Both the position numbers and the translations under genes were made by a program. A stretch of 64,000 nucleotides of DNA from Scyliorhinus canicula (lineage: Eukaryota), in contig NC_052160.1 in NCBI RefSeq assembly GCF_902713615.1, forward strand, positions 141,030,737 through 141,094,736, written 5' to 3'. This document shows positions 2,906 through 54,544 of the stretch, in pieces (position 1 is the first letter of the stretch; every line of letters begins with the position of its first letter). The notes below the pieces were generated by a model. It was not told the DNA's origin. It made no database searches and was given only the letters and a program-made list of their open reading frames with translations.

Positions 2906-3545
2906 ATATTTCAAATATATATAGTCAAAATCAGATTGTTTGATCGTTATGGCAACGCTGTTTGAGGGAGTTTGTTCAGCATCCAGTGGCTGCCATGACA
3001 ACAGCGTCTATGGCCGAGATTCCCTGGAATCTCCAACATTGTTCCCCAACATTGGCCACCCTGCCGCTGTCGGTGGGACTTCCCATTGAATCCGGCCCAC
3101 TCCGCCCGGACACCCGGAGCGAGGTTGCACCATCGGCGGAATTGGAAACCCCCGACGCTTGAACAACCAAAATCCCCCCCCCCTGAACGTACTTAATTGG
3201 CTGTCGAGTGATTTGAGATTTCTGGTGGTTGTGAAAAGCACAATCCAAATGCAAAATTTTCTTTTCATTTGAATCACCGGAATAGGCAGATGGCATTTCT
3301 GGAGGATGCTGTGTTGTCAGGATTGCCCTGGAGTGTCCAGGAATTAAACATTCACCTCCTAATATTGCTGCGAGAAACTCGGGGGAAAATACGTCGGTGC
3401 AATAAACTTTTTGTTTATTGATTGTAAACATATTGGAAGTGTAAAGATAGGCTGTATGACTGAGTGGGGCATTTGGAGGTGGGGCCGGGGTGGGCACGTA
3501 GTGAAACCTCCAAGAATAAGTCTGACCAGAGTTAGCAACCCTAGT

Positions 3546-3883
3546 AGGGCAGCACGGTGGCACAGTGGTTAGCGCTGCTGCCTCACAGCTCCAGGGACCC
3601 GGGTTCAATTCTGGCCTCGGGTGACTGTGTGGAGTTTGCACGTTCTCCCCGTGTCTACGTGGGTTTCCTCCGGGTGCTCCGGTTTCCTCCCAGTCCAAAA
3701 ATGTGCAAGTTAGGTGGATTGGCTGCGCTAAATTGCCCCTTTGTGTCCAAAAGGTTAGGTGGGGTTACTGCATTACGGGGATAGGGTAGAGGTGGGGCTT
3801 AAGTACTTGCTCTTTCCAAAGGCAGTGCAGGCTCGAAGGGCCGGATGGCCTCCTTCTGCGCTGTAAATTCTATGATTTTATGA
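3546..3883 (+). mobile_element. HE1/V-type SINE, CR1-type tail
   Basis: GGGCAGCACGGTGGCACAGTGG head, B box, V core, tail GGCCTCCTTCTGC..TTCTATG. Confidence 0.85.
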
Positions 3884-34410: not shown

Positions 34411-34760
34411 GTTTCTGTAGTAATCCACGGGAGGCAGGAGTTCCGTCACCACACCAATATGTATTTACAATAACGATATTACAGGAGCAGCTACAAACAG
34501 TGCTGCTAGCAGTCCAGTCAACTTAAGACTGGCTCACAAAGCCTACACAGGGGATTATATGGGCCCCCTCAGTAAGCTATCATTGAGGGAGCTCATACTC
34601 CAATTGGCCAACCAATAAAGCCAATTGGAGTTCATTACACCCCTCCCCCCCAAGGTCCGAGGAATTCCTGCCAGCTGGCATTCCTCTGAGCTTCTTCCTG
34701 CTCCTCATGTCTGGGTCTGTCACCTCTGTGTCGTCCGCCGGGTCGTTCTCCGAAGTGGGC

Positions 34761-37560
34761 TTATAAGTACCTTATAGGTGCCCGTCTTTTCCTTGACGAC
34801 CTCCTTGGAAGTTGTTCTTCCTCCTCATCGGGGAGAGGTGTCGCGGCGGCCTCGTCGAGCGTGTCCATCTCCGACTCTGACGACTGGATGACGGGGTCTG
34901 GAGAAATTGCTCGGGGCTGGGGTGTGGGTATCCTTTCCGTCTGGGCTATCCCAGCTTGAGGCAGTCCTGCTTCGCCTGCCTCCAGGTGTGGTTCCGCTGC
35001 CCTTATTTGGTCTAGGTGTTTCTTCAGCACCTTACCTCCTATTGAAACCTCATAGGATATGGGCCCTGTTTGGGACTCTACCGTGCCCTTGACCCACGTT
35101 GGTCCATTCCCATAATTCTTGACCCAAACCGGTGCCCCCACCTGGAAATGTCTCTGCTGCCGACTATTATCATGCCCCCTGCTTTGGGCCTCCTGTTGTT
35201 TCTCCACTTTCCCCGTTAAATTTGGGAAAAGGAGACTCAGCCTCGTTCGCAGCCGCCTTCCCATTAAGAGTTCAGCTGGCGGTATGCCCGTTGTGGAATG
35301 CGGTGTGGTCCTGTAATCAAACAGCCAGCGGGAGAGCATTGTGTCCATTGACGCTGCCGGCTGCTTCTTGAGTCCCGCTTTAAGTGTCTGGACCGCTCTC
35401 TCTGCCAGGCCGTTGGTCGCTGGATGGTAAGGGGCCGTTTTGATGTGACGGACTCCGTTTTCCTTCAGGAATTTTCCAAATTCCCCACTTATGAATGCCG
35501 TTCCATTGTCCGACACCAATACCTCCGGCAGTCCATGTGTTGCAAATGAGGCCCTGAGCTTTTCAATTGTCGATGCTGTGCTTGCCGTGTTTACCCGGTG
35601 GATGTCCAACCACTTGGAGTGGGCGTCCACTATCACCAAAAACACTGAGCCCATGAAAGGGGCGGCGTGGTCAATATGCAGGCGGGTCCACGGTCTGCAT
35701 GGCCATTCCCACGGGTGCAATGGCGCCGCTGGTGGCACTCTGCCCCTATTGGCACTCCTGGCACCGACGTACCAAGGCTGCTATGTCTGTGTCCAAACCT
35801 GGCCACCAAACGTAGCTTCGAGCTAGCATCTTCATTTTAGACACCCCTGGGTGTCTGTGATATAGCTCGGTTAAGATTGCCTGACGGCCCTGAGCTGGGA
35901 CGATTACCCGGGCTCCCCATAATAGGATACCGTCTTCTACGGTTATTTGGTCCCTTCTGCTCCAGTATGGGTGCATCTGGGGCTCCACTGGTCTTTCCAG
36001 TTCCCCTGTTCGCAGTAAATGCTTCATCTTGGCTAAAACTGGGTCTTTTTGCGTCCACAACCAAATATGTTGGGCGCGATTCTCCGCACTCCCGACGGTG
36101 CGGAGAATAGCGTGGCTCGTAAAATTTTACGGCCACGCTGTTCCGACGCCCTCCCGCTATTCTCCCCCCCCCCCACGCCCGACTCCCGATACGAATCGCT
36201 TCCGCCGTTTTTTTACGGCCGGCAGCGATTCTCAGCTGTTCGATGGGCCGAGTTCCCAGCCCTTTACGGCTGTTTTTACGAACGGCAAACACACCTGGTC
36301 TGGCCGTTCGTAAAAACGGCCGTAAACTCTCAATCTTTAAAACCATGGCACCGATTGGCACGGCAGTACCACGGCCGTGCCAAGGGTGCCATGGGCCCGC
36401 GATCGGTGGGCACCGATCACGGGCAGCGGGCCCGATGCCCGCGCACTCTTTGTCCCTCCGCCGCCCCGCTGTATCACTTCGCGGGGCGGCTGAGGGGCAT
36501 CCCGGCCCGCGCATGCGCGGGTTTCACGCAAATGCGCGATGACGTCATCCGCGTATGCGCGGGTTGGAGTCTTCCAATCCGCGCATGCGCGGCTGACGTC
36601 ATATGACGCGTCAGCCAGCGCTAACTCTGGCAAGCGGGCTTAACGAAATTCGTTAAGCCCGCGATGCCGGAGTTTACGGCGTCGGCATGCTAGCCCCGAC
36701 CGGGGACCAGAATCGGTTCCCGGTCGGGAAGGGGGGGGCTGGCGTCAAACCCGCCCGGATTTGACGCCAGCCTTACGATTTCTCCCCATATGGGAGAATC
36801 GCGCCCGTTGTGCGTCTACTGGTAGGGTGTCCAAAAAATTTAGAGTCATTACTGTCTCCTCTACTTTTGGTATTTGCGGCGGAGTGTCTGGGAAGGGAAG
36901 TCTGCTCAAAGCATCTGCATTTGCTACTCGCGTTCCCGGTCTGTGCTCCAGAACGTATCTATACGCCGTCAGTAGCAACGCCCAGCGTTGGATTCTAGCT
37001 GATGCAATCGGGGGTATTGACTTGTCTTCTTTTAATAACTCTAATAACGGCTTATGGTCTGTCACTATGGTGAATTTCCACCCGTACAGATACTGGTGAA
37101 ATTTGTTTACTGCGAATATCACCGCCAGTCCTTCCTTCTCGATTTGGGCGTACTTCCTCTCAGCCATCGCCAAGGTCCTCGAAGCATAGGCTATTGGCTG
37201 TTCTTCCCCATTCCTTCCTCTATGGGCTAAGACGGCTCCTACCCCATACGGGGATGCATCACAATTGACCACCAACTCCTTCCTTGGGTCATAATGCTCT
37301 AGGTCATTTTTGGATGACGGCTGTTCCTTAATGTCCCTAAATGCTCAGTTTTGGCGGGTGGACCATTTCCATTCTTGCCCCTTTTTTAGTAGCTGGTGGA
37401 GGGGTTCTAGGATGGACGTCCTATTTTCAATAAATTTTCCATAATAGGTTACCAACCCTAGAAATGATCGTAACTCCTGGACCGTGGTGGGAGTTGAGGC
37501 TTCTTTTATTGCCCTTACTCGGTCTTCTAATGGGTGTAAGCCTGACTCGTCTACTTTATA
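34761..37560 (-). pseudogene. pol: pol remnant: RT thumb, RNase H, integrase
   Basis: LRSFLGLVTYY, CDASPYGVGAVL, IEKEGLA, TDHKPL, HHCC, IDHAAP/SDNG/NGLAERAV. Contains stops and a MITE insertion. Confidence 0.9.
36072..36806. mobile_element. Harbinger-type MITE inserted in pol
   Basis: Perfect 14-bp TIR GGGCGCGATTCTCC / GGAGAATCGCGCCC, 3-bp TSD GTT. Removing it restores PVDAQHIWLWTQKDP. Confidence 0.93.
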
Positions 37561-37577
37561 TCCCATCCTCGTCGCCA
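37560..37577 (-). promoter_or_regulatory. PBS complementary to the tRNA-Ser(GCU) 3' end
   Basis: Plus strand ATCCCATCCTCGTCGCCA equals the recalled 3' 18 nt, including CCA, of vertebrate tRNA-Ser(GCU). Confidence 0.85.
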
Positions 37578-38079
37578 CTGTAGTAATCCACGGGAGGCAG
37601 GAGTTCCGTCACCACACCAATATTTATTTACAATAACGATATTACAGGAGCAGCTACAAACAGTTCTGCTAGCAGTCCAGTCAACTTAAGACTGGCTCAC
37701 AAAGCCTACACAGGTGATTATATGGGCCCCCTCAATGAGCTATCATTGAGGGAGCTCATACTCCAATTGGCCAACCAATAAAGCCAATTGGAGTTCATTA
37801 GAGTTTCGCAAACCTCCTCATCATTTTACAGATCCCAACTTTTGTGTTATTTGATTTTGACAATATCCTCCAAGTATCCAAGTTCACAACACACTCACAA
37901 TCATGCACAGACCCAACACGAACACATAAAATATGGCGCTACAAACTCTTTTCCAAATTGAGTAATACTCATTAAGGCCAGGAATTTCCGCACCTTTTTT
38001 CATTAGGTGGGTGACTCAAACAAAAGTGATGTTGTGGGACCCGTCCCTTGAGGTTTCTCAGCCTAAGCTGAGATCGATT

Positions 38080-53528: not shown

Positions 53529-54544
53529 TCCTGCCACATTCTGCTTATGAAAGTCGCTTATTTTCACAAGTCGGCTTCAAATGAAGTTACTATGAAAAGC
53601 CCCTAGTCGCCACATTCCGGTGCCTGTTCGGGGAGGCTGGTACGGGAATTGAACCGTGCTGCTGGCCTGCCTTAAAGGCCAGCTATTTAGCATTGTATTA
53701 AACCAGCCCCTAATATCATAGAGTCATAGAGGCTTACAGCATGAAAACAGGCCCTTCGGCCCAACGTCCATGCCGCCCAGTATTTACCGCTATGCTAGTC
53801 CCAGTTGCCCACATTTGGCCCATAATCCTCGAAACACAGTTTCCCTATATAACTTCTAAATACTTTTTAAAAGACAAAATTGTACCCACCTCGAGTACTG
53901 CTCGTTCCAGACACTCACCACCCTCTGTATGAAAACATTGCCCCTCTAGACTCTTTTATATCTCTCCCCTCTCACCTTAAACCTACGCCCTCTGGGTTTT
54001 GACTCCCCCACTTTACTCTACCCTACTCTATGACTTTGTTGTTTTCCTCTGATTACACACTTCTTCTCACATGATCCCTTTCTGCCACTTTAGTTTAAAG
54101 CCTCCCTATCGCCCTAGTTAACGTGACTCGCCAGAACTCTGGTCCCAGCCCAGTTCAGGTGAAGACCATCCCAACAGTACAGCTCCCAATTTCCCTAGTT
54201 TGGGTGCCAGTTCTTCTTGTATCGAAACTCATTTATTGCACACCAATCTTTGACCCATGCATTAATCTCTCTAATCCTTTTTGCCCTATGCTAATTTGCT
54301 TTTGGCTCAGATAATAATCTAGTGATTATTGCCTCTACCTTTTTAATTTAGTCAGTAGCTGCTCACACCTCCCATGCCCTTTCCTGTCCTATCTACAACA
54401 TCATTGGAACCCAGGAGGACCGCGGCAACTTGCCCCCTACTCAGTGTGCATTCCGGTCCCCTGAGCAGCCTCCACAACTATGTTTTAAGAACATTATTGA
54501 ATCACAGGAGAGAGGAGAATTGTTGCATCTGAAAAGATCAAACT

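Follow-up and report, generated by a model that had tools for sequence, protein, structure and literature searches.

The window, by which we mean the whole stretch of 64,000 nucleotides analysed here, carries a Ty3/gypsy copy in which an 18-nt tRNA copy runs into the middle of pol across 6 nt common to both, and the element was very probably born deleted by mispriming of plus-strand strong-stop DNA. On a wider scale, it appears reasonably probable that gypsy families with a short primer-binding site (PBS) hold a genome-wide, datable record of germ-line reverse transcription. About one in eleven integrants would stem from the 'dead-end' tRNA-extended plus strand, their errors would map m1A58 and m3C at e2 with isodecoder resolution, and LTR-tRNA-inverted-LTR inserts would mark second-round plus-strand ends lying 1 or 3 nt into the PBS.

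The window element and the normal primer site of its family

The element lies on the minus strand of the window and is organized as target-site duplication (TSD), LTR, a single G, 18-mer, pol, RNase H, integrase, polypurine tract (PPT), LTR and TSD. The order of RT, RNase H and integrase, together with the LTRs, the PBS and the PPT, corresponds to Ty3/gypsy. The 5' LTR (37579-37802, 224 bp) begins with TC rather than TG and shows 2.7% divergence from the 3' LTR (34416-34639, TG...CA; copy L165), which adjoins the polypurine tract (34640-34651). Both ends are flanked by exactly matching copies of the TSD GAAAC (left, 37803-37807; right, 34411-34415). The single G (37578) separates the 5' LTR from the 18-mer (37560-37577), which is composed of TGG and the reverse-complemented final 15 nt of the genome's own tRNA-Ser(GCT) genes (CCA end). 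From 37559 onwards the minus strand continues in the pol frame (GYKVD...). The retained 3' part of the RT coding region ends with a stop codon (37348-37559); a domain search with the 71-aa piece right after the junction gave no Pfam match, and this piece is presumably late RT, judging by its position and by RT motifs. Further inside pol, a later GC-rich, MITE-like insert of 735 bp (36072-36806) has GGG...CCC inverted ends and a 3-bp AAC duplication and is lacking, as judged by length, in the usual 2.2-kb sister copies; by its appearance it is presumably of the PIF/Harbinger type. The RNase H domain (36823-37344; PF17917, E 2e-36) precedes this insert, and an integrase with zinc finger and core, broken by a stop and a frame change (34764-36069; PF17921, PF00665), follows it. 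These features bear out the first-pass annotation, which had described a perfect 18-nt tRNA-Ser copy at a deletion junction and an LTR-G-18-mer arrangement running straight into pol, with both LTRs and the TSD kept.

Next to these main features, the letters copied from the tRNA provide an ATG that is in frame with the pol sequence still present (MGYKVD..., 37558-37566, minus strand), a frame that stops after ~70 codons. At a distance from the element, ARAGORN identified a tRNA-Leu(AAG)-like sequence at 53630-53710 of the window (minus strand).

In the assembly searched, a 4.2-Gb animal genome, an anchor made of the LTR end and 11 letters of the PBS is present at 903 places. Among the first 30 of these, TAAACTA and the leader follow in 28; the other two are a point variant and a copy with the same 18-mer but another junction. 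The family's native PBS for tRNA-Ser(GCT), one G past the LTR, is thus 11 nt long, as the first-pass annotation had anticipated in supposing a match of fewer than 18 nt, and corresponds to 37567-37577 in the window. The following seven letters (37560-37566), which equal tRNA nt 12-18 counted from the PBS start and end one base short of A58, are missing in ordinary copies; nt 19 of the window copy no longer matches the tRNA. The motif TGGGAT, which the same annotation had placed in the Leu-Gly-Tyr codons of pol at the breakpoint, is indeed found there in 27/30 pol copies anchored downstream of the breakpoint. Given the 11-nt PBS of ordinary copies and the presence of TGGGAT in pol, the seven letters are tRNA-derived, and six of them (TGGGAT, 37560-37565) are common to the tRNA copy and pol. 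They form the junction of a deletion of ~1,970 nt relative to the ordinary internal region of 4.16 kb. Across 28 ordinary copies, TGGGAT is regular at just two places of the internal region, at ~nt 1985 and ~nt 3855. A second LTR family also has an 11-nt PBS (28/30 copies), and 2/30 of its copies are tRNA-extended.

Recurrence, landing sites and origin of the tRNA-extended copies

An A at nt 12 was found in 90/903 anchored copies, of which seven are point variants and 83 carry tRNA letters (9%, counting exact-anchor copies only and leaving solo LTRs out). The first-pass annotation had read the window element as the fossil of a misdirected plus-strand transfer. The transfer is supported, but the element is no single fossil and instead belongs to a recurrent class of copies with the same or similar junctions. 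Within this class, 53 copies match the tRNA up to nt 18, 10 up to nt 19, two up to nt 20-23 and 18 up to nt 27-65, so that 63/83 end at nt 18-19; the script called no tRNA length below 18, and in a few copies (L168, L174, L182) the true match may be shorter. Where letters overlap at the junction, the true stop may lie anywhere within the shared letters, and the stop at nt 18 is read from the whole set and not from the window alone.

The class is not a product of chance, as the 18-mer has 243 genome matches versus one for the reversed control and the exact window junction has 48 versus none. On inspection of 30 of the 243 matches, 15 were located after the window family's LTR, eight after the LTR of the second family and seven after other putative LTR ends. 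A second LTR is present within 5.6 kb in 74/83 tRNA-extended copies, and the 5-bp TSD is exact in 59/74 and near-exact in 68/74 of these, compared with 37/45 and 41/45 in ordinary copies. The flanks are all different, and the median LTR divergence is 0.027 in tRNA-extended and ordinary copies alike.

The two regular TGGGAT places receive 31 (window's site, ~nt 1985) and 10 (~nt 3855) of the 83 junctions; the rest are distributed over more than 20 places, with one unplaced. The 18-20-nt class lands at 14 distinct sites; of the final 8 primer letters, these sites match 4.9 versus 2.1 for random sites (0/100,000 draws), and 4.6 when the two main sites are left out. Several single junctions have an exact overlap of just 0-1 nt. 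We also considered the ranking of predicted duplex energies as the cause of the main landing site and rejected it: the window's site, at -9.4 kcal/mol, is not the top one, and unused sites reach -11.

A different origin would be an ordinary microhomology deletion, by minus-strand template switch or post-insertion repair, in a parent whose PBS was 18 nt long beforehand. Two copies with such a PBS that are near full-length or locally joined do exist (L098, L124), and large deletions are frequent in ordinary copies (10/39). However, all left ends of the latter lie 124-704 nt past the PBS start and none at the PBS, possible parents amount to 2/903 against ~80 deleted 18-nt copies, and the deleted copies are spread over several haplotypes. 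As there is, moreover, no such parent for the copies with up to 65 tRNA letters or for the inverted-LTR products described below, we regard this origin as highly improbable. As a separate observation, the deletions in ordinary copies (L202-L235) are biased in the position of their left ends, and several of them have overlapping ends of 4-17 nt.

Sequence comparison supports, but does not prove, that the junction at the window's site arose many times separately; at least three origins of the same-junction copies are well supported, and many origins are likely. For this comparison all copies were projected onto one natural copy, and 4/31 junction copies and 2/46 ordinary copies were left out of the tree for short overlap. 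In the resulting tree of 27 junction and 44 ordinary copies, the junction label needs 22 changes, compared with 21.8 for shuffled labels. Over the 2.4 kb common to junction and ordinary copies no letters diagnostic of the junction group were found, and rare shared letters show no excess (0.185 per pair in the junction group versus 0.209 and 0.206). Three haplotypes, defined 26 and 39 nt from the junction, account for 17, 10 and 4 copies of the junction group and for 24, 6 and 1 ordinary copies.

These data bear on the idea of a single deleted founder that possessed a perfect 18-nt PBS and gave rise, by amplification, to a non-autonomous (TRIM-like) subfamily, in which case the junction would tell little about rates. 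One junction is, after all, common to 31/83 copies, with 48 exact matches in the genome, and in the second family six read-through copies have one junction, five of them with the same base at nt 36. Furthermore, the AU test on a single clade of junction copies gave p 0.069 with an almost star-like tree (61/68 inner branches open), so that some re-amplification is possible. Yet a common founder is quite unlikely to explain the group, which has no shared derived letters, contains all three near-junction haplotypes and includes both linked sublineages. The more than 20 other junction sites also stand against it, and the founder itself would need the same origin.

We return to mispriming, with separate origins, as the preferred reading. 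In the proposed mechanism, plus-strand synthesis would copy the LTR and then the primer tRNA as far as m1A58, as is known for retroviral RT. The PBS pairs with only 11 of the 18 nt, and the remaining 7 nt would be unpaired and not extendable at the PBS; the extended strand would normally be a dead end or be outcompeted. Its tail may pair with those minus-strand sites that are most complementary to its 3' end, which would mostly be the two TGGGAT sites on which the junctions are seen to land. RT would then extend the mispaired tail and integrase would insert the product, in line with the exact duplications. An RT that passes A58 would continue into the tRNA and likely mis-copy methylated bases.

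Regarding the route of mispairing, we lean slightly, by reasoning, towards pairing at the PBS first (-17 kcal/mol), with the intervening 2 kb looped out of a complete minus strand; an incomplete minus strand, as proposed in the first-pass annotation, would be a serious contender. The preference follows from the left DNA end, which must be double-stranded for integrase. On an incomplete minus strand, the strand's end would have to sit at the junction so as to copy the LTR, whereas PBS pairing plus a loop would give two proper ends without that need. In addition, joins made in place just behind the PBS are found in L098 and L124 and, in the second family, in L286, L290 and L302, with the PBS overwritten in place by tRNA sequence in 2/903 copies. 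Such joins indicate that the extended strand is able to act at a complete minus strand, which would likewise fit the loop-out route.

Read-through copies, probable tRNA modification signals and inverted products

The tRNA reading extends past A58, over 27-65 nt, in 18/83 copies, and 17 more copies from several families bring the read-through set to 35; the added 17 were found by a pattern that fixes flanking letters, which biases their low background. At nt 19, opposite A58, 6/18 unbiased copies differ from the gene (C in four, A in one, G in one; p 1e-5 versus 3% per site). At nt 36, which faces the middle C of the variable loop, the main gene type has G at 13/13 loci and its copies in 0/21 cases (A 11, T 7, C 3). 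As a control, the gene type with the other base at this position is matched by 10/12 copies (commonest gene form); this variant tRNA-Ser(GCT) type, with T in the cDNA sense, accounts for 5/22 gene-like loci. When collapsed by junction and base, the nt-36 changes fall into nine classes, or eight without the A's that are possibly element-derived. Both A58 and the variable-loop C thus display mixed wrong bases that are not gene-encoded, next to neighbours copied faithfully in the upstream-anchored set.

From these patterns, it is likely that the longer tRNA copies record methylated tRNA bases (m1A58, m3C at e2) as copying errors; both positions are established m1A and m3C sites in other vertebrates. 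The available text of previous studies places m3C at the variable-loop site (47d, e2) and at C32 of tRNA-Ser(GCT) in human cells (PMC7969016) and in all Ser clusters of zebrafish (bioRxiv 2024.01.30.575011), and describes RT misincorporation caused by m3C and m1A (PMC8062790). The differences could also derive from lost or unassembled tRNA gene variants or from later mutation. Such an explanation draws on the real gene type with T at nt 36, which accounts for 10 copies, on two A's that may be element-derived, on the CpG context of nt 20 and on same-junction copies that are perhaps not independent. We nevertheless consider it unlikely: none of the 21 copies of the main type retains the G present at all 13 loci, all three other bases occur in eight to nine junction-base classes, neighbouring positions keep the gene's bases in those copies that were anchored upstream only, and the human and zebrafish data place m3C in tRNA-Ser at exactly this position.

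Additional signals in the read-through set are less clear. Ends at nt 52-54, adjoining C32, are seen in 14/35 copies, mostly from few shared junctions. C-to-T changes at nt 20 occur in 12/35 copies versus 3/35 for G-to-A at nt 21 and are linked to the nt-19 errors (Fisher p 0.033), which is a hint of a modification signal, though within a CpG. Two candidate signals were abandoned. Reading all nt-36 G-to-T changes as RT errors was dropped for CGCA-type copies, for which a gene with that base was found, and an error at C32, suggested by an A at nt 54 in L128, is possibly gene-encoded (L270, L271). Independently of this, L193, L265, L270, L271 and L276 are tRNA-Ser(GCT) gene variants with an altered variable arm, one type of which is the primer in ~1/3 of read-through copies. 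In L317 and L287, which belong to other LTR types, read-through ends at ~tRNA nt 35, just short of the variable-loop C, and may represent m3C stops. Similarly, L116, L259 and a junction group at ~nt 3228 end at tRNA nt 41-42, a position confounded by microhomology and adjoining U44, which we take to be a 2'-O-methylated position in tRNA-Ser.

A further product type consists of an LTR, a tRNA copy and an inverted LTR, ~470-490 bp in total and flanked by exact 5-bp TSDs; four such copies were found (L116, L185, L357, L373). Past the tRNA copy, their sequence continues as the reverse complement of an LTR end that carries three PBS letters (L116, L185) or one (L357, L373). In a scan for such products, the 30 loci read from 41 matches were mostly LTR ends with flank behind them or point variants, and one was a new inverted copy. 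These products could arise if the tRNA-extended plus strand jumps to the 3' end of a second plus strand, synthesized when most of the primer was already gone, and the resulting duplex with two left ends would be accepted by integrase. Repeated plus-strand priming, described for Ty1/Ty3 in the accessible part of a review (PMC5371799), fits this jump. With four copies at hand, a fold-back could also have generated the inverted products.

Significance and comparison with known systems

If this reading holds, assemblies alone would reveal how tRNAs were modified in the germ line of past lineages and how RT behaved there. The copies provide in vivo germ-line figures, namely the stop point, the misdirection rate and the guiding sequence, for an RT step known mostly from HIV and yeast. 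Read-through copies may offer a view of tRNA methylation in species without tRNA sequencing. For the annotation of repeats, the same position can give rise to internal deletions again and again, so that copies with a common junction need not form an amplified non-autonomous family, and entries of repeat libraries may carry a perfect 18-nt PBS as a scar.

Pulsinelli and Temin (1991, 1994) reportedly observed deletions in spleen necrosis virus vectors that start at the PBS end and arise via misaligned plus-strand transfer; unlike the present case, these were vector experiments. For germ-line LTR retrotransposons, we found no report of tRNA-marked deletions in a searched collection poor in older and subscription papers, and the accessible text of PMC3187697 contains nothing on them. 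The Mag lineage of Ty3/gypsy, as far as described in the available part of PMC3286476, is alike in its tRNA-Ser PBS, short LTRs, 5-bp TSD and length of 4-5 kb, which makes it a candidate clade for the window family.

Ty1 and Ty3 are closer in mechanism. According to the available sections of the review PMC5371799, they share the short PBS, a first plus strand that copies tRNA beyond it, and a PBS that is normally not overwritten (here 2/903). Their extended strands are, however, described there as dead-end products with a stop at nt 12, whereas here they are integrated and stop at nt 18. For MLV and HIV RT, a plus-strand stop one base before A58, caused by m1A58, is documented in vitro in the accessible text of PMC8599865. 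The same text states that read-through products are unable to complete synthesis and integrate; in contrast, 18/83 copies read through here, most of them with TSDs.

The closest parallel is HIV-1, for which delayed second-strand transfer has been modelled for 44 proviruses with tRNA-Lys3 inserts (Hardy et al. 2025, PMC12657518). In the available part of that study, the proviruses resemble our copies in having an intact LTR, the PBS and tRNA letters followed by a downstream jump, with inserts of 7-54 nt and 5/44 changed at position 58. They differ in coming from a somatic retrovirus with an 18-nt PBS, in which only read-through past A58 is visible. The shark family, by comparison, has an 11-nt PBS, so that the normal A58 stop is visible and forms the main class. 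It further adds germ-line copies with TSDs, the 9% rate, hot spots, a second error site and inverted products. The class to which the window element belongs bears the marks of aberrant second-strand transfer, that is, tRNA letters past the PBS, intact LTRs and TSDs, and a fitting downstream landing. The mechanism is already known in kind from HIV-1; what is new is that the A58 stop can be seen, together with the rate, the landing hot spots and the record of modifications.
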